A DNA stretch of 64,000 nt from Escherichia coli (lineage in GTDB: Bacteria > Pseudomonadota > Gammaproteobacteria > Enterobacterales > Enterobacteriaceae), in the NCBI RefSeq assembly GCF_002854065.1, contig NZ_CP024147.1. The stretch is one strand, 5' to 3'. Positions 3,119 through 46,353 of the stretch are shown here, piece after piece. The position numbers and the translations under genes are program-made. Below the pieces are notes generated by a model. The model made no database searches. It was not told the DNA's origin and saw nothing but the letters and a program-made list of their open reading frames with translations. The stretch's first letter is position 1; every line of letters starts with the position of its first letter.

Positions 3119-5551
3119 TTACAGCATATGTTCGGTACGGGCGATGATATCGTCCTGAGCGTCTGGAGAGAGCGCGGTGAAGAAGGCGGAATAACCCGCG
3201 ACACGCACTACCAGATCGCGATACTGATCGGGATGTTTTTTCGCATCCAGCAGCGTTTCGCGGGAAACGATGTTGTACTGAATATGCCAGCCTTTATGCA
3301 CCTCGAAGAAGGTGCGCAGCAGGATCATCAGTTTCTGCTTGTCAGATTCGTTCTCCAGTGTGGCTGGATTCAGTTTCTGGTTGAGCAACACGCCGCCGAG
3401 AATCGCTGCCGTAGGCAGTTTACCCACCGAGCCAATGACCGCAGTAGGGCCAAGATGATCAGTACCGGAAGCCGGGCTTGCGCCTTCTGCCAGCGGGGTA
3501 TGCGCTTTACGTCCGTCCGGCGTTGCCATAGTCTGCGCGCCAAACGGTACGTTAGCGGAGATAGACGACGTACCCGCGTAATAGTTGCCGCCAACCGGAC
3601 CACGACCGTAGCGTGGGTTATGGTACTGTTTCAGTTCGTCGATATAGGTCTGATAAGCGCGAGCCAGCAGCGTATCGACAGTATCATCGTCGTTGCCGTA
3701 CTTCGGCGCACCGTTAATCAGCCGCTGACGCAGCTGCTCGTGAGTCAGGCCGTCGAAGTCATCTGCCAGTGCGGCAGCAAGCTGTTGCTGACCAATCGCG
3801 CCCTGTTCAAATACCAGTTTCTTCACGGCCGCCAGGCTGTTGCCGAGGTTGGCAATGCCAACCTGCAGGCCAGAAACCCAGTCATATTTCGCGCCGCCTT
3901 GCTTGATGCTTTTCGCTCGCTCAATACAGTCATCCACCAGCGCCGAGCAGAGAATATCGTGCACGTTCTCTTCCAGCATGGTGTCGACGACATATTCGAT
4001 TTCGATTGATTTACGCGTGTAGTAACGGATTTGCGTATCCCACGCGTCCATCACTTCATCGAAGTTGTTGAAGTTACCTGCCGACAACGCTTTTTCTTGT
4101 GGCAGGAACACTTTGCCGCTGGTGGCATCACGCCCGCCTTCCAGCGCCGCCAGCATCACGCGGGCGAAGTTGATAAAGCTCATGCCGGTACAGCGATAGC
4201 CCCATTTGCCACCGACGGCGGTTTCTATACAACCAATCGCTGCGTAGTCGTAAGCGTCCTGCGGTTCAATACCGAGTTTAATAAATTCCGGGATCACGAT
4301 TTCGTCGTTGTTGAACGCCGGCATCCCGAAGCCGCAGCGGATCACCTGCACACAGGCGTCGAGGAAATCGTTGCTCATTCCCGCGTGGTAGCGCACGCTG
4401 AGGTTAGGCTGAGTCGAACGCAGACGGCCGCAGGACTCAAGGATCGCGTAAGAGAGGGGATTCACCGCGTCCATTGGTTGACCATCAACCAGATTTTGTC
4501 CGCCAATGGTGACATTCTGATACAGAGGACTTCCCGCAGAGGCTTTCGAGTGCGAGCCGGAGCGGATTTTGTTCACTTCCAGCAATTTCAACCAGCAGCT
4601 ATGCAGCAATTCGATGGCGTGTTCGCGATCCAGCGTCTGTTTCAGTTCAACATCACGACGATAGTACGGGTAGAGATACTGGTCCATACGACCAAACGAT
4701 ACCGAGTGACCGTTAGATTCGATCTGCAATATCAACTGGATGAAGTAACACAGTTGCAGCGCCTGCCAGAAAGTCTGCGGCGGCTGGTGGGCGATGAGAT
4801 CGCAGTTTTCTGCTATCGCCAGCAGTTCATCGCGACGGCTTTCGCGGGTTTCGGTCGCGGCCATTTCACGCGCCAGGGCAGCGAAACGTTCAATATGTTC
4901 ACTGACTGCCACCAGCACGATATCAATCGCTTTCAGGAATTGCTCACCGTGTAAATCTTCCAGCACCGTCAGGTTGATGCGCGAGCGACGTTCCGCTACT
5001 TTCTCGCGCAGACCATCAAGCCCTTTTTCCAGCAGCAGCGGGAAATTGACCGCCAGGTGCGCATCGCCGGAGGTCATATTGCCTTCCGCTTTAATGATGC
5101 CGGTCGCCAGCAGACCTTTTTGCTCATCGGTAAACATGCCGTAGCAGCGATCCTGTACGGTCTGACCGCGCCACCACGGGCACACTTCATGCAGAACGCG
5201 TTTGTTCTCTTCGCTCACCGCAAAGCCAGCACCGGGACGATCTGCCAGATCATCAATCTCTTTTTCGATCCACGAGACGGTATATTCCGGGAAGATCGGC
5301 GCGGCGCGAACTTCGCTTGCCTGGTTGCCAATGATCAACTCATCGTGTTTGATCCAGATGGTGCGATTCGCCAGGTGATGTGCCAGCGCCAGCGCGCGTC
5401 GTACCGGGATCGGCTTATCGAGATGTTGTTGATACATCTCGGTATAGTGCTGCGCGCGCTCGGTACAAACCGGCGGTTTCACAATATGCACCAGCGCATT
5501 TTTGTGCGCTTTAATGCGGTCGCTGAGCGTGTCCAGTTTCAGTGTGGTCAT
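3119..5551 (-). CDS. ybiW: Glycyl-radical enzyme (pyruvate formate-lyase-like), PflF/YbiW
   Basis: 810 aa ORF with C-terminal glycyl radical motif RVAGYSA. Confidence 0.9.
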   Translation of the reverse strand: MTTLKLDTLSDRIKAHKNALVHIVKPPVCTERAQHYTEMYQQHLDKPIPVRRALALAHHLANRTIWIKHDELIIGNQASEVRAAPIFPEYTVSWIEKEIDDLADRPGAGFAVSEENKRVLHEVCPWWRGQTVQDRCYGMFTDEQKGLLATGIIKAEGNMTSGDAHLAVNFPLLLEKGLDGLREKVAERRSRINLTVLEDLHGEQFLKAIDIVLVAVSEHIERFAALAREMAATETRESRRDELLAIAENCDLIAHQPPQTFWQALQLCYFIQLILQIESNGHSVSFGRMDQYLYPYYRRDVELKQTLDREHAIELLHSCWLKLLEVNKIRSGSHSKASAGSPLYQNVTIGGQNLVDGQPMDAVNPLSYAILESCGRLRSTQPNLSVRYHAGMSNDFLDACVQVIRCGFGMPAFNNDEIVIPEFIKLGIEPQDAYDYAAIGCIETAVGGKWGYRCTGMSFINFARVMLAALEGGRDATSGKVFLPQEKALSAGNFNNFDEVMDAWDTQIRYYTRKSIEIEYVVDTMLEENVHDILCSALVDDCIERAKSIKQGGAKYDWVSGLQVGIANLGNSLAAVKKLVFEQGAIGQQQLAAALADDFDGLTHEQLRQRLINGAPKYGNDDDTVDTLLARAYQTYIDELKQYHNPRYGRGPVGGNYYAGTSSISANVPFGAQTMATPDGRKAHTPLAEGASPASGTDHLGPTAVIGSVGKLPTAAILGGVLLNQKLNPATLENESDKQKLMILLRTFFEVHKGWHIQYNIVSRETLLDAKKHPDQYRDLVVRVAGYSAFFTALSPDAQDDIIARTEHML

Positions 5552-5556
5552 GGTTG

Positions 5557-6456
5557 TTATCCTCGTAAGGTCGCGGTTAACCCTTTCTGGCAGGCATACT
5601 GCTGGGCAAAGTCGAGCAGTTCTGGCGCATCAAGCGGTTTTTCCGGGGCGTCATAGGGCAGATTAAGTAAGTGATATTTGTTGATGCCTAGCGTGTGGTA
5701 GGGCAGGAAATGAATTTCGCCAACGTGCAGCTCGTCGGCGGCAAAATCGGTAATGGCTTTTACAGAGGTTTCGTCGGCATTAAAGCCCTGAATCAGCGGC
5801 ACGCGGATAATGATTTTTTTGCCCGCTGAGGCGAGTTTTTTCAGGTTATCCAGCACTCTGGCGGCGTTACCGTCGGTCCACTGTTTAAACGGCGCGTCGG
5901 CAACGTGTTTTAAATCGGCAAGAAACAGATCGATATAGGGCAGAGAAGGGGCGATATATTTCCACGGCACATGCAGACAGGTTTCTACCGCAGTATGAAT
6001 GCCAGCCTCGTGGCTGGCTTGCAGTAGCGCCATCGCCATTTCCGGCTGCATAAACGGTTCACCGCCAGAAAGCGTTAAGCCGCCGCCGCTGCGATCGTAA
6101 AACGGTTTATCGCGCAGAACGGTCGCCATGATCTCCTCAACGCTTTTCACTTCCCCACACACGGTTAACGCCTGTGTCGGGCAGCAGTCGGTTAACGCCG
6201 TCAGATGCTCCGGGGTTAACTTTTCCCGATGAATAAGCAAACCATTCAACGCACGCTCAATCACGTCCGGCGCGGCCTTAGCGCACAGCTCGCAGCCTTC
6301 CAGACACAGTCGTGCGTCATACAACAGATCCTGCGTGCGGGCGCGGCTTTCCGGGTTCTGACACCAGCGGCAGCCCAGCGAACAGCCTTTAAGAAATACG
6401 ACCGTGCGGATACCGGGGCCATCATGGGTCGAGTAGCGCTGAATATTGAAAATCAT
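5557..6456 (-). CDS. ybiY: Glycyl-radical enzyme activating protein (radical SAM), PflE/YbiY
   Basis: CxxxCxxC-type cluster region [14 protein letters not shown]; start set at ATG 6456 (MIFNIQ) with GAGAGG SD rather than the ORF-track start 6483. Confidence 0.8.
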
Positions 6457-6491
6457 AGTTGCCTCTCTGTTTCGTTCAAGCATTAAAATAC

Positions 6492-6505
6492 TTTCGAATG
6501 AAAGT
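6492..6505. promoter_or_regulatory. 14-bp conserved motif copy 3 (TTTCGAATGAAAGT) in ybiY/fsaA divergent region
   Basis: Exact 14-mer identical to copy 2. Confidence 0.45.
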
Positions 6506-6509
6506 TAGA

Positions 6510-6523
6510 TTGATGTGCGTCAA
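6510..6523. promoter_or_regulatory. FNR-like box TTGATgtgcGTCAA
   Basis: 9/10 match to FNR consensus TTGAT-N4-ATCAA; centre about 60 bp upstream of the ybiY ATG at 6456. Confidence 0.4.
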
Positions 6524-6586
6524 CTGTTCAGAGAGTTTTCCCGTGATAGTCTACATTCAGACAAAAAGTACATTTTGAGGATGGTT

Positions 6587-7249
6587 ATGGAACTGTATCT
6601 GGATACTTCAGACGTTGTTGCGGTGAAGGCGCTGTCACGTATTTTTCCGCTGGCGGGTGTGACTACTAACCCAAGCATTATCGCCGCGGGTAAAAAACCG
6701 CTGGAGGTTGTGCTTCCGGAACTTCATGAAGCGATGGGCGGTCAGGGGCGTCTGTTTGCCCAGGTAATGGCTACCACTGCTGAAGGGATGGTGAATGACG
6801 CGCTTAAGCTGCGTTCTATTATTGCGGATATCGTGGTGAAAGTTCCGGTGACCGCCGAGGGGCTGGCAGCGATTAAGATGTTAAAAGCGGAAGGGATTCC
6901 GACGCTGGGAACCGCGGTATATGGCGCGGCACAAGGGCTGCTGTCGGCGCTGGCAGGTGCGGAATATGTTGCGCCTTACGTTAATCGTATTGATGCTCAG
7001 GGCGGTAGCGGCATTCAGACTGTGACCGACTTACACCAGTTATTGAAAATGCATGCGCCGCAGGCGAAAGTGCTGGCAGCAAGTTTCAAAACCCCGCGTC
7101 AGGCGCTGGACTGCTTACTGGCAGGATGTGAATCAATTACTCTGCCGCTGGATGTCGCACAACAGATGATTAGCTATCCGGCGGTTGATGCCGCTGTGGC
7201 GAAGTTTGAGCAGGACTGGCAGGGAGCGTTTGGCAGAACGTCGATTTAA
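6587..7249 (+). CDS. fsaA: Fructose-6-phosphate aldolase 1
   Basis: ATG at 6587 ([10 protein letters not shown]) with GAGG SD; transaldolase-like fold protein of 220 aa; ORF track extends further upstream. Confidence 0.9.
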
Positions 7250-7324
7250 CCGGACGTTCTGCATCCTCGTAAATTGCTGATGACGTGGCGGAGTGCCGCG
7301 TCTTATCAGGCCTGAAGGTGGCAA

Positions 7325-8074
7325 TTACTGCCCGCACACCTCACACCCCGGATTACTCATCAGTTTCATTTCGCGAAACTGACAGGTCATCGCATCGTAC
7401 ATGACGATTTTCCCGCTGGCCGGTTTACCATAACCTGCCAGCAGTTTGATCGCTTCCATTGCCTGCAATGAACCAATTACGCCGATCAACGGTGCCATCA
7501 CGCCTGCTTCTACGCAGGTTAACGCGTTCTCGCCAAACAAACGGCTAAGGCAGCGATAGCACGGTTCGCCGTCCTGATAAGTGAAGACCGTGATTTGACC
7601 TTCCATACGAATTGCCGCGCCGGAAACCAGCGGCACCTTCGCGGCAAAACAGCCTGCGTTCAGTTGATTACGTACCGCAACGTTATCCGTACAGTCGAGC
7701 ACCAGATCGTGTTCAGCAATCAATGCTGCAAGTTCTGCGTCATCCAGCAGTGCATTGACTGGCGTAATCGCGATATGTGGGTTGATCCGCGCCAGGGCGT
7801 CACGGGCGGATTCCACCTTCGGTTGCCCGACCGTAGCATCACTGTGCAGCGTCTGGCGTTGCAGATTCGAGAGCGAAACCGAGTCGAAGTCGAGCAGCGT
7901 CAGGTTGCCGACACCGGCGCTTGCCAGATACTGCGAAGCTGCGCAGCCGAGTCCACCGAGGCCGACTACCAGCACACGAGAATCTTTTAGCGCCTCCTGA
8001 CCGTCAAAATCAAAACCGCGCAGAATGATTTGCCGGTTGTAGCGCAGCATCTCCTGATCGCTGAGTTCCGCCAT
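7325..8074 (-). CDS. moeB: Molybdopterin-synthase adenylyltransferase
   Basis: 249 aa; ThiF/MoeB nucleotide-binding motif GLGGLG and C-terminal CxxC. Confidence 0.9.
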   Translation of the reverse strand: MAELSDQEMLRYNRQIILRGFDFDGQEALKDSRVLVVGLGGLGCAASQYLASAGVGNLTLLDFDSVSLSNLQRQTLHSDATVGQPKVESARDALARINPHIAITPVNALLDDAELAALIAEHDLVLDCTDNVAVRNQLNAGCFAAKVPLVSGAAIRMEGQITVFTYQDGEPCYRCLSRLFGENALTCVEAGVMAPLIGVIGSLQAMEAIKLLAGYGKPASGKIVMYDAMTCQFREMKLMSNPGCEVCGQ

Positions 8075-9309
8075 TACAGGCCTCCGAACAACGCGTTAAA
8101 CGGTTCTACTTCCACCCATTCGCCCACTTCCACATTGCCGCGATCGCGTTCCAGTACGATAAAGCAGTTGCCGAGGCTAAAGGAGCTAAATATATGTGAA
8201 CCCTGATGTCCGGTGGTCGTCACTTCCAGTTCGCCATCGGCGTTGCGGTGCAGCACGCCGCGCTGGAAATCAAGACGTCCTGGCGTTTTTTTCAGGCGGG
8301 ACGCTGTGCGTACGCGCTGGCGCGCGGGCAGGCCGCTGGCGGTGTTGCCGCTTAGTTTTGCCAGCAAAGGCTGTACCAGTTGATAGAAGGTCAGCGTCGC
8401 TGAAACCGGGTTGCCCGGCAGGCCGCAGAACCAGCTATTGCTGAGTTTACCGAACGCGAACGGTTTACCTGGTTTAATCGCTAGCTTCCAGAAGGCGATC
8501 TCCCCCAGCTCTTCAAGAATCGTTTTGGTGTAATCCGCTTCACCCACTGAAACACCGCCGGAACTGATCACCACATCCGCCTGGCTGTCGGCTTCAATAA
8601 ATGCGGCGCGCAGGGCATGGGGATCGTCGCGGATAATCCCTAAGTTGATTACCTCGCATCCCAACTGTTCTAACATCAGGTGTACGGCGAGACGGTTGGT
8701 ATCGTAGATTTGGCCGTCGCCCAGCGGCTGACCGGGCAACTGGAGTTCATCACCGGTAGAAAAAAGCGCTACACGCACTTTACGAATCACCGGAACTTCG
8801 GCAATCCCCAGTGAAGCAATTACTGGCAGCTCTGCGGTAGTCAGGCGAGTTCCCGCCGGGAAAACAACCGCACCTGCAGAGATATCTTCACCGCGACGGC
8901 GAATATTTTGCCCGCTACGCACTTCAGCAGTAAAACGCACGCCATTGTCCGTTTGTTCAGTCTGCTCCTGCATCACCACCGCTTCGCAGCCTTCCGGCAC
9001 CGGCGCACCGGTCATAATACGAATGCAGGTACCCGCAGGCCATTCACCATGGTATGGCTGACCGGCAAAGGATTTACCGGCAACGGGCAGCGGTTGCCCG
9101 GAGGCAATATCGGCTAAACGCACCGCGTAGCCGTCCATTGCGGAGTTATCAAACCCCGGAACATCAAGCGGCGAAACGACATCGCTCGCCAGAATACGAC
9201 CAAAACACTGTACCAGTGGCAGCGTTTCCTGGGCGGTCAGTGGGGTGACGCGAGAAAGCATCTCATTAAGCGCGGTGTCGAGCGACATCAATCCGGTGGT
9301 AAATTCCAT
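8074..9309 (-). CDS. moeA: Molybdopterin molybdenumtransferase
   Basis: 411 aa; overlaps moeB start by ATGA, consistent with moeAB operon. Confidence 0.9.
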
Positions 9310-9512
9310 GAAAACACTCCTGCGGAGGCAAAATCGAATTTGCCTATTATGTCAGAAAAACGCCACAGACTGTATGCCACCTCGGGCGTAGCGCTGGGTC
9401 CTGCCTTTACATGCCATATCCATCTTTCTATATTCAAAAATTGAATGAGTAATTCATAAAAATTCTGATATTTATAGCAAAAGTGGCGAGCCACCCTTAA
9501 TGGACGAATACT

Positions 9513-10478
9513 ATGGGCAAAGCAGTTATTGCAATTCATGGTGGCGCAGGTGCAATTAGCCGCGCGCAGATGAGTCTGCAACAGGAATTACGCTACATCG
9601 AGGCGTTGTCTGCCATTGTTGAAACCGGGCAGAAAATGCTGGAAGCGGGCGAAAGTGCGCTGGATGTGGTGACGGAAGCGGTGCGTCTGCTGGAAGAGTG
9701 TCCACTGTTTAACGCCGGAATTGGCGCTGTCTTTACGCGTGATGAGACCCATGAACTGGACGCCTGTGTGATGGATGGTAACACCCTGAAAGCCGGTGCG
9801 GTGGCGGGCGTTAGTCATCTGCGTAATCCGGTTCTTGCCGCCCGGCTGGTGATGGAGCAAAGCCCGCATGTGATGATGATTGGCGAAGGGGCAGAAAATT
9901 TTGCGTTTGCTCATGGCATGGAGCGCGTCTCGCCGGAGATTTTCTCCACGCCTTTGCGTTATGAACAACTACTGGCAGCGCGCGAGGAAGGGGCAACAGT
10001 CCTCGACCATAGCGGTGCGCCACTGGATGAAAAACAGAAAATGGGCACCGTAGGGGCCGTGGCGTTGGATTTAGACGGCAATCTGGCGGCAGCCACGTCC
10101 ACGGGCGGAATGACCAATAAATTACCCGGACGAGTTGGCGATAGTCCCTTAGTGGGGGCCGGATGCTACGCCAATAACGCCAGTGTGGCGGTTTCTTGTA
10201 CCGGCACGGGCGAAGTCTTCATCCGCGCGCTGGCGGCATATGACATCGCCGCGTTAATGGATTACGGCGGATTAAGTCTCGCGGAAGCCTGCGAGCGGGT
10301 AGTAATGGAAAAACTCCCTGCGCTTGGCGGTAGCGGTGGCTTAATCGCTATCGACCATGAAGGGAATGTCGCGCTACCGTTTAACACCGAAGGAATGTAT
10401 CGCGCCTGGGGCTACGCAGGCGATACGCCAACCACCGGTATCTACCGTGAAAAAGGGGACACCGTTGCCACACAGTGA
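9513..10478 (+). CDS. iaaA: Isoaspartyl dipeptidase / L-asparaginase family (Ntn hydrolase)
   Basis: 321 aa; GTVGAVALD autoproteolytic Thr motif. Confidence 0.9.
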
Positions 10479-12336
10479 TGAACTTGATGCCGGTAATGTG
10501 CTGGCGGTTGAAAATCTTAATATTGCCTTTATGCAGGACCAGCAGAAAATAGCTGCGGTCCGCAATCTCTCTTTTAGTCTGCAACGCGGTGAGACGCTGG
10601 CAATTGTTGGCGAATCCGGCTCCGGTAAGTCAGTGACTGCGCTGGCATTGATGCGTCTGTTGGAACAGGCGGGCGGTTTAGTACAGTGCGATAAAATGCT
10701 GTTGCGGCGGCGCAGTCGTGATGTGATTGAACTTAGCGAGCAGAGCGCTGCACAAATGCGCCATGTGCGCGGTGCGGATATGGCGATGATATTTCAGGAG
10801 CCGATGACATCGCTGAACCCGGTATTTTCTGTGGGTGAACAGATTGCCGAATCAATTCGTCTGCATCAGAACGCCAGTCGTGAAGAAGCGATGGTCGAGG
10901 CGAAGCGGATGCTGGATCAGGTACGCATTCCGGAGGCACAAACCATTCTTTCACGTTATCCGCATCAACTCTCTGGCGGGATGCGCCAGCGAGTGATGAT
11001 TGCGATGGCGCTGTCATGCCGCCCGGCGGTGCTGATAGCCGATGAGCCAACCACCGCGCTGGATGTCACTATTCAGGCGCAGATCCTGCAATTAATCAAA
11101 GTATTGCAAAAAGAGATGTCGATGGGCGTTATCTTTATCACTCACGATATGGGCGTGGTGGCAGAGATTGCCGATCGGGTACTGGTGATGTATCAGGGCG
11201 AGGCGGTGGAAACGGGTACCGTCGAACAGATTTTTCATGCACCGCAACATCCTTACACCCGTGCGCTGTTAGCTGCTGTTCCGCAACTTGGTGTGATGAA
11301 AGGGTTAGATTATCCCCGACGTTTCTCATTGATATCGCTTGAACATCCAGCGAAACAGGAACCCCCCATCGAGCAGAAAACGGTGGTGGATGGCGAACCT
11401 GTTTTACGGGTGCGTAATCTGGTCACCCGTTTCCCTTTGCGCAGCGGTTTGTTGAATCGCGTAACGCGGGAAGTGCATGCCGTTGAGAAAGTCAGTTTTG
11501 ATCTCTGGCCTGGCGAAACGCTATCGCTGGTGGGCGAGTCTGGCAGCGGTAAATCCACTACCGGGCGGGCGTTGCTGCGCCTGGTCGAATCGCAGGGCGG
11601 CGAAATTATCTTTAACGGTCAGCGAATCGATACCTTGTCACCCGGCAAACTTCAGGCATTACGCCGCGATATTCAGTTTATTTTTCAGGACCCTTACGCT
11701 TCGCTGGACCCACGTCAGACCATCGGTGATTCGATTATCGAACCGCTGCGTGTACACGGTTTATTGCCAGGTAAAGACGCGGCTGCACGCGTTGCGTGGT
11801 TGCTGGAGCGCGTGGGCCTGTTACCTGAACATGCCTGGCGTTACCCGCATGAGTTTTCCGGCGGTCAGCGCCAGCGCATCTGCATTGCTCGCGCGTTGGC
11901 ATTGAATCCAAAAGTGATCATTGCCGACGAAGCCGTTTCGGCGCTGGATGTTTCAATTCGCGGGCAGATTATCAACTTGTTGCTCGATCTCCAGCGTGAT
12001 TTCGGCATTGCGTATCTGTTTATCTCCCACGATATGGCTGTGGTAGAGCGGATTAGTCATCGTGTGGCGGTGATGTATCTCGGGCAAATTGTTGAAATTG
12101 GTCCACGGCGCGCGGTCTTCGAAAACCCGCAGCATCCTTATACGCGTAAATTACTGGCGGCAGTTCCGGTCGCTGAACCGTCCCGACAACGACCGCAGCG
12201 TGTACTGCTGTCGGACGATCTTCCCAGCAATATTCATCTGCGTGGCGAAGAGGTGGCAGCCGTCTCGTTGCAATGCGTCGGGCCGGGGCATTACGTCGCA
12301 CAACCACAATCAGAATACGCATTCATGCGTAGATAA
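10465..12336 (+). CDS. gsiA: Glutathione ABC importer ATP-binding protein (double ATPase)
   Basis: Two Walker A motifs (GESGSGKS twice) and two LSGG signatures; start placed at TTG 10465 (MPHSDELD) overlapping iaaA end. Confidence 0.85.
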
Positions 12337-12355
12337 CATTCAGGCGGAGAATAAA

Positions 12356-13894
12356 ATGGCAAGAGCTGTACACCGTAGTGGGTTAGTGGCGCTGGGCATT
12401 GCGACAGCGTTGATGGCATCTTGTGCATTCGCTGCCAAAGATGTGGTGGTGGCGGTAGGATCGAATTTCACCACGCTCGATCCGTATGACGCGAATGACA
12501 CGTTATCTCAGGCCGTAGCGAAATCGTTTTACCAGGGGCTGTTCGGTCTGGATAAAGAGATGAAACTGAAAAACGTGCTGGCGGAGAGTTATACCGTTTC
12601 CGATGACGGCATTACTTACACCGTGAAATTGCGGGAAGGAATTAAATTCCAGGATGGCACCGATTTCAACGCCGCGGCGGTGAAAGCGAATCTGGACCGG
12701 GCCAGCGATCCGGCGAATCATCTTAAACGCTATAACCTGTATAAGAATATTGCCAAAACGGAAGCGATCGATCCGACAACGGTAAAGATTACCCTCAAAC
12801 AGCCGTTCTCAGCGTTTATTAATATTCTTGCCCATCCGGCGACCGCGATGATTTCACCGGCAGCGCTGGAAAAATATGGCAAGGAGATTGGTTTTCATCC
12901 GGTGGGAACCGGACCGTATGAACTGGATACCTGGAATCAGACCGATTTTGTGAAGGTGAAAAAATTCGCGGGTTACTGGCAGTCAGGATTGCCCAAACTG
13001 GACAGCATAACCTGGCGTCCGGTGGCGGATAACAACACCCGCGCGGCAATGCTGCAAACCGGTGAAGCGCAGTTTGCTTTCCCCATTCCTTACGAGCAGG
13101 CCGCACTGCTGGAGAAAAACAAAAATATCGAGTTGATGGCCAGTCCGTCAATTATGCAGCGTTATATCAGTATGAACGTGACGCAAAAGCCATTCGATAA
13201 CCCGAAGGTCCGTGAGGCGCTGAATTACGCCATTAACCGCCCGGCGCTGGTGAAAGTGGCCTTCGCGGGCTATGCAACGCCAGCTACTGGTGTGGTACCG
13301 CCGAGTATCGCCTACGCGCAAAGTTATAAACCGTGGCCTTACGATCCAGTGAAAGCGCGCGAATTACTGAAAGAGGCGGGATATCCCAACGGTTTCAGTA
13401 CCACGCTGTGGTCGTCACATAACCACAGCACCGCGCAGAAAGTGCTGCAATTTACCCAGCAGCAGTTAGCGCAGGTCGGGATTAAAGCCCAGGTGACTGC
13501 GATGGATGCCGGACAGCGGGCGGCAGAAGTTGAAGGTAAAGGGCAAAAAGAGAGCGGCGTGCGGATGTTCTACACTGGCTGGTCGGCTTCAACCGGCGAA
13601 GCGGACTGGGCGCTATCGCCACTGTTCGCCTCGCAAAACTGGCCACCGATGCTGTTTAATACCGCATTTTACAGCAATAAACAGGTGGATGACTTCCTGG
13701 CTCAGGCACTGAAAACGAATGATCCGGCGGAAAAGACCCGCTTGTATAAGGCGGCGCAGGATATCATCTGGCAAGAGTCGCCGTGGATCCCGCTGGTGGT
13801 AGAAAAACTGGTGTCGGCACACAGTAAAAACCTGACCGGTTTTTGGATCATGCCAGACACCGGCTTCAGCTTTGAAGACGCGGATTTGCAATAA
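12356..13894 (+). CDS. gsiB: Glutathione-binding periplasmic protein
   Basis: ATG 12356 with signal peptide [26 protein letters not shown]; family 5 SBP. Confidence 0.9.
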
Positions 13895-13911
13895 GCAACG
13901 CAGGGAGTGGA

Positions 13912-14832
13912 ATGCTTAATTACGTTATCAAACGCTTACTGGGGTTGATTCCAACGCTGTTTATCGTCTCGGTGCTGGTGTTTTTATTTGTGCATATGCT
14001 GCCCGGCGATCCGGCGCGATTGATTGCCGGGCCCGAAGCTGATGCGCAGGTTATAGAACTGGTGCGTCAGCAGCTGGGGTTGGATCAGCCGCTGTATCAC
14101 CAGTTCTGGCACTATATCAGCAATGCTGTGCAGGGGGATTTTGGCCTGTCGATGGTGTCGCGTCGTCCGGTTGCCGATGAGATTGCCAGCCGCTTTATGC
14201 CAACGCTGTGGCTGACCATAACCAGTATGGTCTGGGCGGTGATATTTGGTATGGCGGCGGGAATTATCGCCGCCGTCTGGCGTAACCGTTGGCCGGATCG
14301 ATTGAGTATGACCATTGCGGTGTCGGGGATCTCGTTTCCGGCATTTGCGCTGGGGATGCTTTTAATTCAGGTATTCTCCGTTGAACTGGGCTGGCTGCCT
14401 ACCGTGGGAGCAGACAGTTGGCAGCACTACATTTTACCCTCCCTGACGCTCGGCGCGGCAGTGGCCGCCGTGATGGCGCGCTTTACCCGCGCGTCGTTTG
14501 TCGACGTTTTAAGCGAAGATTATATGCGTACCGCGAGGGCGAAAGGGGTAAGCGAAACCTGGGTTGTCCTCAAACACGGGCTACGCAACGCGATGATCCC
14601 GGTAGTGACCATGATGGGCTTACAGTTTGGCTTTTTGCTCGGTGGTTCTATCGTGGTGGAGAAAGTTTTCAACTGGCCCGGACTTGGACGCTTACTCGTT
14701 GACTCCGTAGAAATGCGCGATTACCCGGTGATTCAGGCGGAAATTCTGCTTTTCTCGCTGGAATTTATTCTTATCAACTTAGTGGTGGATGTGCTTTACG
14801 CCGCCATTAACCCGGCTATCAGGTACAAGTAA
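13912..14832 (+). CDS. gsiC: Glutathione ABC transporter permease
   Basis: 306 aa polytopic membrane protein, DppB-like. Confidence 0.9.
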
Positions 14833-14834
14833 GG

Positions 14835-15746
14835 ATGCGACTATTTAACTGGCGACGTCAGGCGGTGTTAAACGCCATGCCACTGGTCAAACCTGACCAG
14901 GTACGTACACCGTGGCATGAATTCTGGCGACGATTTCGCCGTCAGCATATGGCGATGACCGCCGCATTATTCGTTATTTTATTGATTGTGGTGGCCATTT
15001 TTGCACGCTGGATCGCTCCCTATGACGCCGAAAATTATTTTGATTATGACAATCTGAATAACGGACCTTCTTTGCAGCACTGGTTTGGCGTCGATTCACT
15101 GGGGCGCGACATTTTCAGCCGTGTCCTGGTTGGTGCGCAAATCTCGCTGGCGGCGGGCGTGTTTGCCGTGTTTATCGGTGCGGCGATAGGGACGTTGCTG
15201 GGCTTGTTGGCTGGATATTATGAAGGCTGGTGGGATCGGCTGATCATGCGCATTTGCGATGTGCTGTTTGCCTTCCCGGGTATTTTACTGGCGATCGCTG
15301 TTGTTGCGGTGTTGGGAAGCGGCATTGCTAACGTGATTATTGCAGTCGCCATTTTTTCCATCCCTGCGTTTGCCCGCCTGGTGCGCGGCAACACGCTGGT
15401 GTTGAAACAGCAAACCTTTATTGAGTCAGCACGCAGTATTGGTGCTAGCGATATGACCATTTTGTTGCGTCATATCCTGCCTGGGACCGTCTCTTCTATC
15501 GTGGTGTTTTTCACCATGCGCATTGGTACCTCGATTATCTCTGCCGCCAGCCTGTCATTTCTCGGCCTCGGTGCGCAGCCGCCGACACCAGAGTGGGGAG
15601 CAATGCTCAATGAGGCTCGAGCGGATATGGTTATCGCGCCGCATGTCGCTGTTTTTCCGGCCCTGGCTATTTTTCTGACTGTACTGGCGTTCAATTTGTT
15701 GGGCGATGGTTTACGCGATGCGCTGGATCCGAAAATTAAAGGATAG
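14835..15746 (+). CDS. gsiD: Glutathione ABC transporter permease
   Basis: 303 aa DppC-like permease. Confidence 0.9.
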
Positions 15747-15923
15747 TTACGTTTGAATATTACTTGAAAGAGTAATCACCTCACAGGAAATTATTGCCCT
15801 AAGCAAGTGTTGTAACTTTCTGCTGATTTTGTAGAATCGGGTAATTTGGTTAAAAAGCCGCAGCAAGGGACTGTTTTTGCAGCGGCACAGCGTTCAGACA
15901 GTTATTTTGTTAAATGTATTAAC

Positions 15924-18272
15924 ATGCTGAGTTTATACGAAAAGATAAAGATAAGGCTGATAATTTTATTTTTATTGGCAGCACTGTCATTTATTGGCCT
16001 TTTTTTCATCATTAACTATCAACTGGTATCGGAACGCGCGGTAAAACGTGCCGATAGCCGCTTTGAACTTATTCAGAAAAACGTCGGCTATTTCTTTAAA
16101 GATATTGAACGTTCGGCCCTGACATTAAAGGACTCACTGTATTTATTAAAAAATACAGAGGAGATTCAACGCGCTGTGATCCTGAAAATGGAAATGATGC
16201 CATTTTTAGACTCGGTGGGACTGGTACTTGATGATAATAAATATTATCTCTTTTCGCGGAGGGCGAACGATAAAATCGTTGTTTATCATCAGGAACAAGT
16301 AAATGGACCGCTTGTCGACGAGTCAGGGCGGGTTATTTTTGCCGATTTTAACCCATCGAAACGACCGTGGTCGGTGGCTTCAGATGACTCTAACAACAGC
16401 TGGAATCCGGCATACAATTGCTTTGATCGTCCGGGTAAAAAATGTATCTCTTTTACGCTACGCATCAACGGCAAAGATCACGATTTGTTAGCGGTGGATA
16501 AAATTCATGTCGATTTAAACTGGCGATATCTGAACGAGTATCTTGATCAAATCAGCGCTAATGATGAAGTTCTATTTTTGAAACAAGGCCATGAGATCAT
16601 TGCCAAGAATCAACTCGCTCGTGAAAAACTGATTATTTATAATAGCGAAGGTAATTATAATATTATTGATTCTGTCGATACTGAATATATCGAAAAAACA
16701 TCAGCGGTGCCAAATAACGCATTATTCGAAATCTATTTTTATTATCCGGGCGGTAATTTATTGAACGCATCAGATAAACTTTTTTATCTGCCGTTTGCGT
16801 TCATTATTATCGTATTGCTGGTGGTTTATTTAATGACCACTCGTGTGTTCCGTCGGCAATTTTCTGAAATGACAGAGCTGGTTAATACGCTGGCGTTTTT
16901 GCCTGACTCAACGGATCAGATCGAGGCTCTGAAAATTCGCGAAGGCGATGCGAAAGAGATTATCAGCATCAAAAATTCGATCGCGGAAATGAAAGATGCC
17001 GAAATTGAACGGTCAAATAAATTGCTCTCACTGATCTCTTACGATCAGGAAAGTGGTTTTATTAAAAATATGGCGATTATTGAGTCCAACAATAATCAGT
17101 ATCTGGCTGTGGGGATCATCAAACTGTGTGGTCTGGAAGCCGTGGAAGCTGTGTTTGGTGTTGATGAACGCAATAAAATCGTCAGGAAATTGTGTCAGCG
17201 AATTGCTGAGAAATATGCACAATGCTGCGATATCGTGACATTCAATGCCGATCTCTATTTACTTCTGTGTCGGGAAAATGTACAGACATTTACCCGTAAA
17301 ATAGCGATGGTAAACGATTTTGACAGCAGCTTTGGCTACCGCAATCTGCGCATCCATAAGTCTGCCATTTGTGAACCTTTGCAGGGGGAAAACGCCTGGA
17401 GTTACGCAGAAAAACTGAAACTGGCGATTTCCAGTATCCGTGACCATATGTTCTCCGAGTTTATTTTCTGTGATGACGCGAAACTCAACGAAATAGAAGA
17501 GAATATCTGGATTGCGCGTAATATTCGCCATGCAATGGAAATTGGCGAACTATTCCTCGTCTATCAACCGATCGTTGATATTAACACCCGCGCCATTCTG
17601 GGCGCGGAGGCGTTGTGCCGTTGGGTGTCTGCGGAGCGGGGGATCATTTCACCGCTGAAGTTCATTACCATTGCTGAAGATATCGGGTTTATCAATGAGC
17701 TGGGTTATCAGATTATTAAAACGGCAATGGGTGAATTCAGACATTTTAGTCAGCGTGCATCGCTGAAGGATGATTTCTTACTGCATATTAATGTTTCGCC
17801 CTGGCAGTTAAACGAACCGCACTTTCATGAGCGTTTTACCACCATCATGAAAGAAAATGGCCTGAAGGCGAACAGCCTCTGTGTTGAGATCACTGAAACC
17901 GTGATCGAGCGAATTAATGAACATTTTTATCTCAATATTGAACAACTGCGTAAACAAGGGGTACGGATATCGATTGATGACTTTGGCACCGGTTTGTCAA
18001 ACCTGAAACGTTTTTATGAAATTAATCCAGACAGCATAAAGGTGGACTCGCAATTTACCGGCGATATTTTCGGTACTGCGGGAAAAATTGTGCGCATTAT
18101 TTTCGATCTGGCACGCTATAACCGGATCCCGGTGATTGCGGAAGGCGTAGAGAGCGAAGACGTTGCGCGTGAATTAATCAAATTAGGATGTGTTCAGGCT
18201 CAGGGGTATCTGTACCAGAAACCCATGCCATTCTCCGCCTGGGATAAAAGTGGAAAATTAGTAAAAGAGTAG
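15924..18272 (+). CDS. pdeI: c-di-GMP phosphodiesterase (EAL domain) PdeI/YliE
   Basis: Membrane-anchored protein with EAL motif (GAEALCRW); start chosen at MLSLYEK; AT-rich gene. Confidence 0.85.
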
Positions 18273-18279
18273 TTTACGT

Positions 18280-19608
18280 ATGTCCAGAATCAATAAGTTC
18301 GTACTTACAGTCAGTCTGCTGATTTTTATCATGATTTCAGCAGTTGCCTGCGGGATCTACACTCAAATGGTAAAGGAACGGGTGTATAGCCTGAAACAGT
18401 CCGTTATTGATACTGCTTTTGCGGTGGCAAATATTGCTGAATATCGGCGTAGCGTGACAATTGATCTTATCAACACGCTAAATCCCACGGAGGAACAGCT
18501 GTTGGTTGGCTTACGCACAGCTTACGCCGACTCGGTTTCACCCTCTTATTTGTACGATGTCGGTCCTTATCTGATTTCCAGTGACGAATGTATTCAGGTA
18601 AAGGAGTTCGAGAAAAATTATTGTGCAGATATTATGCAGGTTGTGAAGTATCGACATGTCAAAAATACAGGGTTTATCTCTTTTGACGGTAAAACCTTCG
18701 TCTATTACCTCTATCCGGTAACTCACAATCGTAGTCTGATATTTTTGCTTGGTCTGGAGCGTTTTTCTTTACTGTCAAAATCGCTGGCGATGGACAGCGA
18801 GAACCTGATGTTCTCTCTGTTTAAGAACGGTAAACCGGTGACCGGTGATGAATATAATGCTAAAAACGCCATCTTCACCGTTTCGGAAGCGATGGAGCAC
18901 TTCGCCTATTTGCCGACCGGATTGTACGTATTTTCGTATAAAAAAGATGTTTATTTGCGGGTTTGTACATTGATTATTTTCTTTGCCGCATTGGTGGCAG
19001 TGATATCGGGTGCCAGTTGCCTCTATCTGGTACGCAGAGTGATTAATCGTGGTATTGCGGAGAAAGAAGCCATTATTAATAACCATTTTGAACGCGTACT
19101 GGATGGCGGGCTTTTCTTTTCGGCTGCCGATGTCAAAAAACTCTACAGTATGTATAACTCGGCGTTCCTGGACGACCTGACCAAAGCAATGGGTAGAAAA
19201 TCCTTTGACGAAGATTTAAAAGCGCTGCCGGAAAAAGGCGGTTATTTGTGCCTGTTTGACGTCGATAAATTCAAAAATATTAACGACACCTTCGGTCATT
19301 TGCTGGGCGATGAAGTGTTGATGAAAGTGGTGAAAATCCTTAAATCACAGATCCCGGTAGATAAAGGTAAAGTCTACCGCTTCGGCGGTGACGAATTTGC
19401 GGTGATTTATACGGGTGGAACGCTGGAGGAGTTGCTATCGATTCTAAAAGAAATCGTTCATTTCCAGGTGGGAAGCATTAATTTAAGCACCAGTATCGGT
19501 GTAGCGCATTCAAATGAATGTACTACCGTCGAACGCTTGAAAATGCTGGCGGATGAGCGGCTGTATAAGAGTAAGAAAAACGGCAGGGCTCAGATTAGCT
19601 GGCAGTAG
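18280..19608 (+). CDS. dgcI: Diguanylate cyclase (GGDEF domain) DgcI/YliF
   Basis: 442 aa; GGDEF motif RFGGDEFAV present. Confidence 0.85.
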
Positions 19609-19623
19609 AATTAGAATAGTGTT

Positions 19624-19647
19624 AGTACCCCTGAATCAAGGGGTACT
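19624..19647. terminator. Bidirectional terminator hairpin between convergent dgcI and antitoxin gene
   Basis: agtacccct-gaatca-aggggtact perfect stem. Confidence 0.5.
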
Positions 19648-19677
19648 AATGAATGTGGTAAATCATTTGCAAACATT

Positions 19678-20007
19678 TTACTTTGCAAAAACTTCCGGCC
19701 CTTTTATTGCCAATGTATTCAAAATACGTAGTGCCGGGCCGCTCGGTTTTATTTCATTACGTTCCCATTTCGAGACACTTTCTTTTGACATTCCCATTGT
19801 ATGTGCCAGCACGGATTGTGACATGCCGTATCGGGTGCGGATGGCTTTGATCTCTTCACCCGTCATTGATTTGACTTTGGCTATACGGGCGCTGACTTCA
19901 CGGGCTTTGACCATGACGGCAATGGCATCAACCTCACTATCAGACATCAGGCCCAGTGCATTCAGTTCCTTTGCATCTTCCAGCATCATTTGTAATTTAT
20001 CGCTCAT
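19678..20007 (-). CDS. HTH (XRE-like) antitoxin candidate, HigA2-like
   Basis: 109 aa; C-terminal motif WERNEIKPSGPALRILNTLA resembles the WExGxRxPxGxAxxLL signature of HigA2-type antitoxins; overlaps upstream gene by 11 nt. Confidence 0.6.
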   Translation of the reverse strand: MSDKLQMMLEDAKELNALGLMSDSEVDAIAVMVKAREVSARIAKVKSMTGEEIKAIRTRYGMSQSVLAHTMGMSKESVSKWERNEIKPSGPALRILNTLAIKGPEVFAK

Positions 20008-20383
20008 TTTTCACCTCAATCAAAAAGCCGGTTTCGATCAAATCCTTTATTTGCTTATTGCTAAAGGCCAGAAATGCATTTGCCATTTTTTTGTAGGCCG
20101 CCAGTTCATCATCTTCGATTTCTTTGGTTCCTTTACTGCTTAGACCACTCTTGGACCAACCATCATAAAAAAACACATGATTTGCTGATTTAAAAAAGAT
20201 AATTGTTCTGGCTCCACCACTCTTTCCTTGTTGGAGGGGTAACCGTTTTTTGATGACACCGCTACCTAAATCAGCCTCCCATATGCCTTGCATCACTTCT
20301 TCAGCGGCAGCCATGAGAACTTTATCGTGAATACCAAGTTTTTTCGTGCTTTGGCTGAATCGCCTTTCCTTATACACACCCAT
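19997..20383 (-). CDS. RelE/HigB2-like toxin candidate
   Basis: 128 aa; motif GKSGGARTIIFF resembles HigB-2 family GxxxGGxRxIxY/F; ATG with AAGGA SD; upstream of and overlapping the antitoxin. Confidence 0.55.
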   Translation of the reverse strand: MGVYKERRFSQSTKKLGIHDKVLMAAAEEVMQGIWEADLGSGVIKKRLPLQQGKSGGARTIIFFKSANHVFFYDGWSKSGLSSKGTKEIEDDELAAYKKMANAFLAFSNKQIKDLIETGFLIEVKNER

Positions 20384-20398
20384 ACATCCATCCTTGTG

Positions 20399-20424
20399 GT
20401 AATGTTTACTATAGTAAGCATTAC
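20399..20424. promoter_or_regulatory. Near-perfect 26-bp palindrome (24/26) upstream of toxin start; candidate TA operator
   Basis: gtaatgtttactatagtaagcattac lies 16-41 bp upstream of the toxin ATG. Confidence 0.45.
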
Positions 20425-20435
20425 GCTTATTTCAA
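20408..20435 (-). promoter_or_regulatory. Candidate sigma70 promoter of TA operon (-35 TTGAAA, 16-bp spacer, -10 TATAGT)
   Basis: Hexamers read on minus strand; -10 lies inside the palindrome. Confidence 0.4.
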
Positions 20436-20608
20436 GTAATTGCGATCAAAACTTTAATTTGGTGTGAAAAAGTGAGAGTTGCCTCGAGTACGATTCATTT
20501 TTCTCGATTTATGCGTCAGGGGATTTTGTGCGTAAGGGTAGGACATCGGGAAGGGTAGTATAGGCAGATCGAAGAACAATATCCTTGTTAGATCTGCCTT
20601 TAGATTAA

Positions 20609-21934
20609 TTAAACCCGGCTACCCCACAAATCATACTCATCGGCGTGCTCGACTTTCACACACAGGATATCACCCGGCTTAACGTTGGTTTCACCATTGA
20701 GATAAACCGCACCGTCGATTTCCGGTGCATCTGCCATGCTGCGACCAATCGCGCCTTCTTCGTCCACTTCGTCGATAATCACCAGAATTTCACGGCCCAC
20801 TTTCTCTTGCAGGCGCTCGGCGGAAATCTGCTGCTGCAGCTGCATGAAACGGTTCCAGCGTTCTTCTTTCACTTCTTCCGGAACCTGGTCAGGCAGGGCA
20901 TTGGCGTCTGCACCTTCAACCGGGCTGTATTTAAAGCAGCCAACGCGATCCAGACGCGCTTCTTTCAGGAAGTCGAGTAGCATCTGGAAATCTTCTTCCG
21001 TCTCGCCAGGGAAGCCGACAATAAAGGTTGAGCGTAGGGTCAGTTCCGGGCAGATTTCGCGCCACTGTTTGATGCGCGCCAGTTGGCGATCTACAGAACC
21101 CGGACGCTTCATCAGTTTGAGAATGCGCGGGCTGGCGTGCTGCAACGGAATGTCCAGATACGGCAGGATTTTGCCTTCCGCCATCAGTGGGATGACGTCG
21201 TCCACATGCGGATAAGGGTAAACGTAGTGCAGACGTGTCCAGATCCCCAGTTTCGATAACTGTTCGCACAGGCTGACCATGCTGGTTTTTACCGGCTCGC
21301 CGTTGTGGAAGCCAGTACGATGTTTAACATCAACGCCATAGGCGGAAGTATCCTGCGAGATCACCAGAATCTCTTTAACGCCCGCATCTACCAGACGTTT
21401 CGCTTCACTTAACACTTCGCCAATCGGACGGCTCACCAGGTCGCCGCGCATAGACGGAATAATGCAGAAGGTGCAGCGGTGATTACAGCCTTCAGAAATT
21501 TTCAGATAGGCATAATGACGCGGCGTCAGTTTCACACCTTGTTCTGGCACCAGGCTCAGGAATGGGTTGTGTTTCGGTTTTGGCACGTAGTGATGAACGT
21601 GCTCCAGAACCTGCTCATAGCTATGAGGCCCGGTGATTTCCAGCACTTTCGGGTGGACTTCGCGGATCTGATCTTCTTTTGCCCCCAGACAACCGGTCAC
21701 AATTACCTTGCCGTTTTCATTCAACGCTTCACCAATGGCTTCCAGTGATTCTTGTACCGCGCTGTCAATAAAGCCGCAGGTGTTGACGATCACCATGTCC
21801 GCATCGTCATAGCTCGGTACCACGTCATAACCTTCAGTGCGTAGTTCGGTGAGAATACGCTCTGAATCAACAAGGTTTTTCGGACAGCCAAGGGAAACAA
21901 AGCCGATTTTCGGCTGGGGAGTTACTTTGCTCAT
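20609..21934 (-). CDS. rimO: Ribosomal protein S12 methylthiotransferase (radical SAM MTTase)
   Basis: 441 aa; radical [11 protein letters not shown] motif and N-terminal MTTase cysteines. Confidence 0.9.
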
Positions 21935-43634: not shown

Positions 43635-44104
43635 TTATATATTGCTCTATTTTTGCAAATCAAATCACAAATAATCAAATAAGATCTTTAATTGAACTGT
43701 TTTGATTACTACAGTGCACTTACCGAATACATACAGAGGCATTGCTTAGCGAAACACAAAATTTCCTGAGACATTATTAACGTCAGCAGAAGGTTCATGC
43801 ATTGACAACGGAAATGTACGCTTATGGAGGGCGTTCCGACGATGTTTGCCAAATTCATAGATGTTATTCAAACGTTTTTAACTGAACCGGCAATTTTAAT
43901 TGGTTTGCTGGTGGGTATTGGTTATGCCCTTGATAAGAAATCGCCAATAAAAATTATTACCGGCATGGTCAGCGCCATGGTGGGATTAATGATGGTGTTA
44001 TTTGGTGGTTTCCAGTTTTCCGCAACATTTAAACCGGTAGCAGAAGCCGGGTGATGCTGCCAACTTACTGATTTAGTGTATGATGGTGTTTTTGAGGTGC
44101 TCCA

Positions 44105-44380
44105 GTGGCTTCTGTTTCTATCAGCTGTCCCTCCTGTTCAGCTACTGACGGGGTGGTGCGTAACGGCAAAAGCACTGCCGGACATCAGCGCTATCTCTGC
44201 TCTCACTGCCGTAAAACATGGCAACTGCAGTTCACTTACACCGCTTCTCAACCCGGTACGCACCAGAAAATCATTGATATGGCCATGAATGGCGTTGGAT
44301 GCCGGGCAACCGCCCGCATTATGGGCGTTGGCCTCAACACGATTTTCCGCCATTTAAAAAACTCAGGCCGCAGTCGGTAA
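44105..44380 (+). CDS. insA: IS1 InsA
   Basis: 91 aa with CxxC zinc finger; part of IS1. Confidence 0.9.
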
Positions 44381-46286: not shown

Positions 46287-46353
46287 GGTAGGGCGTAATG
46301 AGAGCGATTATTCTGCTGTTCGATAGTCTGAATAAACGGGTAATGACTCCAAC

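Follow-up and report, generated by a model that had tools for sequence, protein, structure and literature searches.

Two probable gene gains of different age in the gsiD/rimO spacer of Escherichia coli: the pdeI-dgcI pair and a toxin-antitoxin cassette

The genes pdeI (yliE) and dgcI (yliF), which act on cyclic di-GMP (c-di-GMP), are known from Escherichia coli K-12, where a 40-bp hairpin alone lies between dgcI and rimO. We analyzed a 64,000-nt stretch of E. coli DNA (the window), a chromosomal segment from ybiT through lysO, in which an AT-rich block at 15750-20600 holds the same pair. The window is 100% identical to strain CUWW06 as far as 44,050, and genes beyond that point were called de novo. 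The genes of the pair, their order, their domains, and their catalytic motifs are as in K-12, at ~99% identity, whereas a 995-bp toxin-antitoxin (TA) segment takes the place of the K-12 hairpin in the window. The genes and the kind of feature are thus already known and annotated, and the current understanding of them is unchanged.

Both enzymes have been characterized in other strains. PdeI is active as a phosphodiesterase in vivo, and its overexpression blocks phage N4 like that of other phosphodiesterases (PMC7553319). DgcI, studied as its Shigella ortholog, synthesizes c-di-GMP when expressed (PMC11327459). Full-length homologs of YliE and YliF are carried by plasmids with accessory cellulose operons (preprint 10.1101/2025.05.09.653004). 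In the window, the pair and its surroundings are arranged as follows.

14835-15746, plus strand: gsiD, the left flank, of native composition (GC content 0.525); its stop codon is the left edge of the block.
15747-15923, plus strand: the gsiD-pdeI spacer (GC 0.373), which would have been acquired together with pdeI.
15924-18272, plus strand: pdeI (yliE), a CHASE9 sensor with an EAL c-di-GMP phosphodiesterase (GC 0.417).
18280-19608, plus strand: dgcI (yliF), a GAPES2 sensor with a GGDEF diguanylate cyclase (GC 0.435).
19609-20603, no strand assigned: the accessory TA segment, 995 bp (GC 0.417), in place of the ancestral 40-bp dgcI-rimO spacer hairpin.
20609-21934, minus strand: rimO, the right flank, of native composition (GC 0.526); its stop codon is the right edge of the block.

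The EAL domain of PdeI (PF00563, E = 1.4e-69) has intact catalytic and metal-binding motifs (EALCR 562, DDFGTG 685, EGVE 740), with which a published motif table concurs (PMC3484386). The GGDEF domain of DgcI (PF00990, 89.4 bits against a cut-off of 23.8) retains its GGDEF motif at residue 369 and has no RxxD I-site upstream. The domain assignments of pdeI, dgcI, the toxin, and the antitoxin agree with the RefSeq annotation. They also confirm the gene identities given in the original prediction, which was made from the letters of the window; the domains are CHASE9 plus EAL, GAPES2 plus GGDEF, a PF06296 RelE-family toxin, and an HTH_3 antitoxin. pdeI and dgcI code for periplasmic-sensor-coupled enzymes that degrade and synthesize c-di-GMP, respectively. 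As dgcI starts only 7 nt past pdeI, the two genes probably form one operon.

We consider it likely that the block is a two-layer horizontally acquired islet, lodged in a permissive spacer between two converging genes. The older layer (15747-19608) would comprise pdeI-dgcI with its 5' region, and the younger layer (19609-20603) the TA segment.

The compositional boundary of the block is sharp. Its GC content is 0.420 in surroundings of ~51-52%, the lowest of any 4.85-kb stretch within the 64-kb window, and along the GC profile values drop from ~0.52-0.55 outside to 0.37-0.45 across 15750-20600. Non-overlapping segments of 4,851 bp have a mean GC of 0.510 (standard deviation (sd) 0.027, minimum 0.429); segments as GC-poor as the block make up 0.16% of all, and every one of them overlaps it. 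A two-change-point maximum-likelihood fit over 9.5-27 kb placed the change-points at 15730 and 20614, with a GC of 0.419 inside and 0.522 outside. The log-likelihood ratio (LLR) was 74.6, against a maximum of 17.1 in 200 block-shuffles. Both fitted positions fall no more than ~15 bp from the stop codons of gsiD and rimO (15746 and 20609), which are contained in the support intervals 15625-15755 and 20589-20719. Among the 58 genes of the window, the lowest GC contents belong to the toxin gene (0.408), pdeI (0.417), and dgcI (0.435), while gsiABCD (0.533) and rimO (0.526) are typical of it. An AT-rich block against gsi and rimO flanks, as originally predicted, is therefore borne out with essentially exact coordinates, and its deviation from the flanking genes is significant.

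That this dip is ordinary gene-to-gene variation without evolutionary meaning has, in our judgment, next to no probability. Another stretch of the window (~51.5-56.4 kb) has a GC of 0.429, and several single native genes have a GC of 0.45-0.47. Neither the LLR, far above the shuffle maximum, nor the location of the boundaries at two stop codons agrees with such variation, and the boundaries of the block coincide with a presence/absence boundary across genera.

This second boundary emerged from a comparison of the gsiD/rimO junction. One genome per species was scanned with GsiD, and the window proteins were placed by tblastn in each of the best 80 of >586 confirmed loci. In ~45 non-Escherichia species gsiD is followed directly by the convergent rimO, with a spacer of 37-130 bp and a GC of 0.48-0.77 that consists of a GC-rich hairpin or REP-like sequence. 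The genera with such an empty junction include Citrobacter, Salmonella, Enterobacter, Klebsiella, Raoultella, Lelliottia, Kluyvera, Kosakonia, Buttiauxella, Atlantibacter, Cedecea, Trabulsiella, and Yokenella. No ortholog of pdeI or dgcI was found in the 79 non-Escherichia gsiD loci. Four Escherichia species, namely E. coli, E. albertii, E. fergusonii, and E. marmotae, have the pair at precisely this junction, and ~99% of 5,426 complete E. coli genomes do. In a megablast search with 15000-21500, 5,425 of the 5,426 genomes matched and 5,366 covered at least 80% of the query; in most of them the coverage was 85%, split in two pieces around a gap that corresponds to 19609-20603. The locus is a worked example of a sharp compositional boundary that meets a cross-genus presence/absence boundary within a few bases.

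The proteins have an equally narrow distribution. Full-length relatives of PdeI occur solely in Escherichia (E. albertii, 88% identity; E. marmotae, ~92%, from a partial protein; E. fergusonii, 70%), and the next matches beyond the genus have ~30% identity and cover the EAL domain alone. We searched 5.8 billion protein clusters with PdeI and DgcI by a word-indexed method, and 1.84 billion cluster representatives with the PdeI sensor region by exhaustive HMMER. The sensor half of PdeI gave 37 matches in the latter, most of them fragments of Escherichia PdeI. Those named sequences among the distant sensor matches that we checked were from E. coli, E. fergusonii, or Salmonella enterica.

Among the three species compared, E. 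coli, E. albertii, and E. fergusonii, the gsiD-pdeI spacer is homologous. Its conserved core, ATTTTGTAGAATCrGG..ATTTG, holds a promoter-like TTGTAA-16-TAGAAT (15810-15837). The homology of this 5' spacer across species speaks for one insertion event in which the 5' region came along. For E. coli versus E. albertii, the synonymous divergence (dS) is 1.12 for pdeI and 0.66 for dgcI, against 0.54-0.87 for the flanking genes, and the ratio of nonsynonymous to synonymous divergence (dN/dS) of the pair is about 0.05. These rates come from the E. albertii comparison only, as the dS values of E. fergusonii against E. coli are at saturation throughout the region. The pair is inherited vertically, functional, and under purifying selection, yet less constrained than its neighbors. 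By parsimony, pdeI-dgcI would be an Escherichia-specific gain that took place once, at the base of the genus.

We propose that a c-di-GMP module was inserted in the Escherichia ancestor between the gsiD stop codon and the hairpin that ends rimO. The inserted unit would have been self-contained, made up of a promoter region, pdeI, and dgcI. Since then it would have descended vertically under purifying selection. An old horizontally acquired segment, as the original prediction had it, is supported by the empty junction in ~45 species and by the pair's presence at the same place in four Escherichia species. For c-di-GMP biology, the pair is a genus-specific addition to the Escherichia signaling network with plasmid paralogs linked to cellulose operons.

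The junction itself has gained genes repeatedly. In about 15 of the species sampled, other insertions, 1.8-7.8 kb long, separate gsiD from rimO. Their cargo differs each time and is unrelated, and includes an RCC1-repeat protein, an RHS fragment, a sigma-54/PRD activator with a phosphotransferase system (PTS) EIIA-type domain, a major facilitator superfamily transporter, a GH31 hydrolase, a chemoreceptor, and a GNAT protein. On the simplest reading, a spacer between two stop codons tolerates insertions without a site-specific mechanism. In this the block resembles the small islets known from convergent-gene spacers, which are hotspots of gain, as here too the insertion lies between two stops and disrupts no promoter. 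Classical genomic islands have an integrase, a tRNA, and direct repeats, none of which marks the Escherichia block. As these mobility hallmarks are missing, we call the block an islet rather than a classical integrative island; it is an ordinary, well-behaved case of gene gain at a permissive convergent-gene spacer.

The plasmid pairs indicate what kind of source the older layer may have had. In direct confirmation of the preprint, a CHASE9-EAL gene with a GAPES2-GGDEF gene immediately behind it is present on about 100 E. coli plasmids, in the order and orientation of the chromosomal pair. Aligned over the full length, the two plasmid proteins have 36.6% identity to PdeI and 40.1% to DgcI, and their genes have a GC of 0.35 and a GC at third codon positions (GC3) of 0.29-0.31. 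On pF719-2 (NZ_OY754394, IncHI1B-type) the pair lies upstream of bcsA-bcsB, between IS26 and IS3 (locus 6395-15207). Its pde and dgc genes overlap by 11 nt, in contrast to the 7-nt gap of the chromosomal pair, and no TA genes adjoin the plasmid module. An AT-rich amino-acid composition is common to both pairs, whereas the chromosomal pair has no bcs genes nearby and a near-native codon choice. The plasmid paralogs reveal a two-gene module that is a mobile unit, and a low GC that characterizes the family as such. The source of the Escherichia module may have been an AT-rich accessory gene pool, which would survive as the paralogous pde-dgc pair on large E. coli plasmids near bcsAB.

The nature of the AT-richness bears on this history. 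Instead of the codon adaptation index (CAI), for which the window has no highly expressed reference set, we used a Karlin-type codon distance, the rare-codon fraction, and a decomposition of the GC deficit. The content of Phe, Tyr, Met, Ile, Asn, and Lys, whose codons are AT-rich (FYMINK), is 0.33-0.35 in PdeI and DgcI, which rank 1 and 3 among the 58 proteins of the window. The GC deficits decompose as follows.

pdeI: total 0.114, of which amino-acid composition 0.081 and codon choice 0.033.
dgcI: total 0.095, of which amino-acid composition 0.074 and codon choice 0.022.
Plasmid pde: total 0.178, of which amino-acid composition 0.079 and codon choice 0.099.
Plasmid dgc: total 0.180, of which amino-acid composition 0.084 and codon choice 0.096.

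About three quarters of the chromosomal pair's deficit is amino-acid composition. This component is alike in the chromosomal and plasmid copies (0.074-0.084), while the part due to codon choice is 3-4 times larger on the plasmid. GC3 rises from the plasmid pair (0.29-0.31) through E. fergusonii (0.37-0.40) and E. albertii (0.41-0.47) to E. coli (0.45-0.50), with the host flanking genes at 0.54-0.59. In the Lawrence-Ochman framework of amelioration, acquired DNA drifts toward the composition of its host, and GC3 moves ahead of codon positions 1 and 2. The pair looks consistent with it, its GC3 having moved toward the host and codon positions 1 and 2 lagging. This pattern of deficits is that expected of an old acquisition, in which synonymous sites would have been largely ameliorated and a slow amino-acid composition would keep the low-GC signature. 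In the proposed history, the synonymous sites of pdeI-dgcI would have drifted largely to host usage, and the FYMINK-rich protein sequences would hold the DNA at about 42% GC.

A number of observations weigh against a horizontally acquired islet, the first of them being codon usage. Rare codons make up 0.032 of pdeI and 0.034 of dgcI, against a background of 0.031; in the per-amino-acid codon distance B the two genes rank 26 and 16 among 29 long genes, which is native-like; and their dinucleotide signature delta* is only ~1.5 sd above the mean. The edges are likewise plain. There is no mobility gene (integrase, transposase, or insertion sequence (IS) element) among the open reading frames (ORFs) of the block, no tRNA in the block, and neither direct or inverted repeats nor a target-site duplication were found to delimit either layer. 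The cluster searches revealed no donor lineage outside Escherichia and Salmonella, and the plasmid paralogs, at 37-40% identity, are related to the source but not close enough to have been the donor. The outgroup sampling is wide and incomplete. In addition, the gsiB-yliI stretch of E. fergusonii (locus positions 3478-13878) is unexpectedly divergent, with dS saturated at 1-3 throughout; its GsiD is 87% identical to that of E. coli, and Citrobacter GsiD is closer (91-92%). Recombination from a divergent lineage may account for this stretch. Finally, the H-NS motif described below is only weakly enriched in the block, and direct binding of H-NS at the yliE/pdeI locus was not found in the searchable literature.

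Some of these points would fit a different history, in which pdeI-dgcI is an ancient vertical enterobacterial pair that was lost outside Escherichia and the AT-richness is merely protein composition. The native-like codon choice and rare-codon use, a GC deficit made up mostly of amino-acid composition, and edges free of mobility genes and repeats are all as this history would have them. But it needs a precise loss in dozens of lineages, each leaving a GC-rich spacer of 37-130 bp; no ortholog was found elsewhere in the 5.8 billion protein clusters or the 1.84 billion representatives; and the other family members are all accessory or plasmid-borne. We judge it highly unlikely. For the horizontal gain of pdeI-dgcI, the evidence is the phylogenetic distribution and not a foreign signature, because codon usage is native-like: the gain of the old layer is proven by synteny. 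This calls for caution on method, since the old layer looks native in codon-adaptation and rare-codon tests and its AT signal lies mainly in amino-acid composition. A CAI scan alone would probably not have flagged the pair.

Another explanation is that the low GC is not a foreign relic and has been kept by selection, either for H-NS-type regulation or for proteins rich in Lys, Asn, Ile, Phe, and Tyr. It is compatible with horizontal acquisition but would give the composition another meaning, and we regard it as a tentative possibility. The amino-acid component of the deficit is the same in all family members, including the 37-40%-identical paralogs (FYMINK 0.33-0.36, GC at second codon positions 0.31-0.33), and the block still has ~42% GC after the whole history of the genus. 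Expression data point in the same direction. In K-12, dgcI expression is very low or none, the DgcI protein is undetectable, and high-copy expression is toxic (PMC5635695); in CFT073, pdeI and dgcI are both expressed more at 37 °C than at 23 °C (PMC12890032).

The block also contains the sole perfect match of the 64-kb window to TCGATAAATT, which we take to be the H-NS high-affinity motif; it lies inside dgcI, at 19262-19271. Allowing at most one mismatch, the window has 14 occurrences of the motif where shuffles predict 5.4; the block holds 4 of them, with 1.06 expected (P = 0.023). The AT-richness together with the low dgcI expression and the induction at 37 °C suggests H-NS-type silencing, of which the AT-rich block is probably a target. 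Strong selection on nucleotide content is nevertheless disfavored, as GC3 differs by host and between plasmid and chromosome in the way that passive amelioration predicts, and slow amino-acid replacement (dN/dS about 0.05) suffices for a frozen composition.

The younger layer has its own boundaries, which were fixed by direct base-by-base extension against K-12. Homology to K-12 breaks off directly behind the dgcI stop codon and returns ~3 bp ahead of the rimO stop region. The segment is beside dgcI and not inside it, exactly between the dgcI and rimO stop codons. It contains the following features.

19621-19650, no strand assigned: the dgcI/antitoxin hairpin, with a perfect 11-12-bp stem (-19.8 and -16.8 kcal/mol on the two strands; z -4.5).
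19678-20007, minus strand: the antitoxin gene, 109 aa, with a C-terminal HTH_3 domain (E = 1.9e-9).
19997-20383, minus strand: the toxin gene, 128 aa, PF06296 RelE family (113.6 bits against a cut-off of 27, profile positions 1-120 of 120).
20399-20435, minus strand: a putative TA promoter/operator, TTGAAA-16-TATAGT (20435-20408), overlapping the 26-bp palindrome GTAATGTTTACTATAGTAAGCATTAC (20399-20424); both are consensus matches only.
20562-20599, no strand assigned: the right hairpin GGCAGATC..GATCTGCC, which abuts the rimO stop (-15.5/-16.7 kcal/mol), with no clear U-tract.

The closest described systems are the HigBA-like type II modules. RefSeq calls the window toxin a member of the RelE/ParE family, and the toxin-first order, the helix-turn-helix (HTH) antitoxin, and the palindrome at a promoter-like site are all shared with such modules. 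The toxin gene is upstream of the antitoxin gene, co-oriented, and overlaps it by 11 nt (19997-20007). The HTH of the antitoxin resembles MqsA/NadS-type HTH domains, with scores below the curated cut-offs. The TTGAAA-16-TATAGT element and the palindrome are likely the promoter and operator of the TA genes, located where autoregulation would be expected, and the pair is presumably a classic autoregulated type II module. In distinction to HigBA-like modules, the window toxin matches no entry in NCBIfam or PADLOC, and by sequence neither toxin nor antitoxin has an informative relative in the Protein Data Bank. Outside E. coli, the closest relatives of the toxin (~59% identity) are plasmid-borne, in the low-GC Morganellaceae Moellerella, Providencia, and Xenorhabdus, and further relatives occur on other plasmids. 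Only one phage relative was found, at 37% identity.

The TA segment is present in 1,138 of the 5,426 complete E. coli genomes (21%) at 98.4-100% identity, many O157:H7 among them; in a divergent carrier the internal spacing is the same. Roughly one E. coli strain in five, O157:H7 included, consequently has a TA cassette immediately downstream of dgcI. The dgcI-rimO spacer has 40 bp in E. fergusonii and 46 bp in E. marmotae, without TA genes in either. Homology to the K-12 hairpin, which is absent from the TA allele, is clear for the E. marmotae spacer. Because of this homology, the short spacer is taken as ancestral and the TA allele as derived within E. coli. In codon usage, too, the TA genes deviate more than all other short genes of the window (pooled B 0.467, against 0.288 +/- 0.036 and a maximum of 0.392 in size-matched samples), and the toxin gene has the top rare-codon fraction in the window.

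The two layers have nearly the same GC (0.421 for 15747-19608 and 0.417 for 19609-20603), for which reason we considered that pdeI-dgcI and the TA genes arrived as one island and that most E. coli subsequently lost its TA part by deletion. A TA diversity within E. coli of up to ~1.6%, comparable to core-gene divergence, means that the cassette is not very recent and would suit such an island. Co-acquisition was rejected on the outgroup states and codon usage. E. fergusonii and E. marmotae have a short, TA-less spacer, the latter with the homolog of the K-12 hairpin; in E. albertii this place is taken by an unrelated ORF; the codon usage of the TA genes is markedly more foreign than that of pdeI and dgcI; and the plasmid paralog module has no neighboring TA genes. 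A single island is accordingly very improbable. Since the outgroup spacers are short and the TA codon usage is foreign, the equal GC of the two layers is a coincidence and no sign of co-arrival.

We favor a separate insertion of the TA cassette, younger than that of pdeI-dgcI, with the order of the two events given by parsimony. Later, within E. coli, the 995-bp RelE-family toxin/HTH antitoxin cassette would have replaced the 40-bp spacer hairpin. It would have brought its own promoter-operator and flanking hairpins, and, present in 21% of genomes, would persist as a presence/absence polymorphism. Two acquisitions that differ in age would then be neighbors. The original prediction left open whether a TA module had inserted into or beside the AT-rich segment. 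The junctions place it beside the c-di-GMP pair, as a later and separate event, and the comparison across Escherichia genomes showed the pair to be syntenic in four species and the TA genes to be strain-variable within E. coli.

Two further states of the dgcI-rimO spacer were observed. In the type strain of E. albertii (NBRC 107761; locus 12802-13515), a 237-aa minus-strand ORF fills the spacer as a third allelic state. It resembles the PRK09687 'putative lyase' (119 bits against a cut-off of 275), and none of the 5,426 E. coli genomes has the segment. E. coli BS-01 (locus 1-2171) has a decayed TA segment (93% identity over 48%), with a 122-aa toxin gene annotated and the antitoxin gene missing; its pdeI is a pseudogene with an internal stop.

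The block had also been described as bounded by GC-rich terminator hairpins, which holds only in part. At the right, the 20562-20599 hairpin abuts the rimO stop, belongs to the TA insert, and stands in for the ancestral spacer hairpin; the 40-bp spacer of K-12 is itself a strong hairpin (-20/-23.5 kcal/mol). The left boundary has no hairpin. The nearest candidate lies 110 nt inside the block.

15857-15886, no strand assigned: the left imperfect GC-rich hairpin GCCGCAGCAA..TTGCAGCGGC (-15.8 kcal/mol, z -2.2).

This is probably the left 'terminator' of the original prediction. It is not conserved in E. albertii or E. fergusonii, and its T-run is on the minus strand only, with none on the gsi strand. 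The 19621-19650 hairpin, part of the inserted TA segment, is situated between the convergent dgcI and antitoxin stops. It has no U-tract, yet is likely a bidirectional transcription stop. No Rfam family was detected in the block.

A more far-reaching reading would join these elements. The CHASE9-EAL/GAPES2-GGDEF pair would be a mobile and self-contained 'c-di-GMP set-point cassette' of the Escherichia and Salmonella accessory pool, of which one copy was domesticated at the root of Escherichia. Its AT-richness would be actively maintained, since H-NS silencing would give a host-temperature switch, and the TA cassette with its hairpins would alter termination or read-through at dgcI/rimO. We hold this combination to be rather unlikely.

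Elsewhere in the region, E. marmotae has immediately beyond rimO (locus 4431-8595) genes for a LacY-like permease, a LacI-family regulator, and a GH42 beta-galactosidase-family protein, where E. coli has bssR. In the window itself, the stretch around 51.5-56.4 kb (GC 0.429) is the second lowest in GC among 4.85-kb stretches. Between ybjP and ybjQ (53300-56300) the GC is 0.30-0.33 at 53500-54500 and 55500-56000, and ORFs are few. An IS1 copy (insB-like ORF 54911-55414) is located inside this AT-rich ybjP-ybjQ stretch. Beyond 44050, where the window departs from CUWW06, there are two inverted IS1 copies, with ORFs at 44105-44802 (plus strand) and 46354-47051 (minus strand). They bracket PTS-like ORFs at 44859-45944 and 45966-46286 within an accessory PTS/sulfatase cluster, and the layout of 44050-47100 suggests an IS1-mediated rearrangement.

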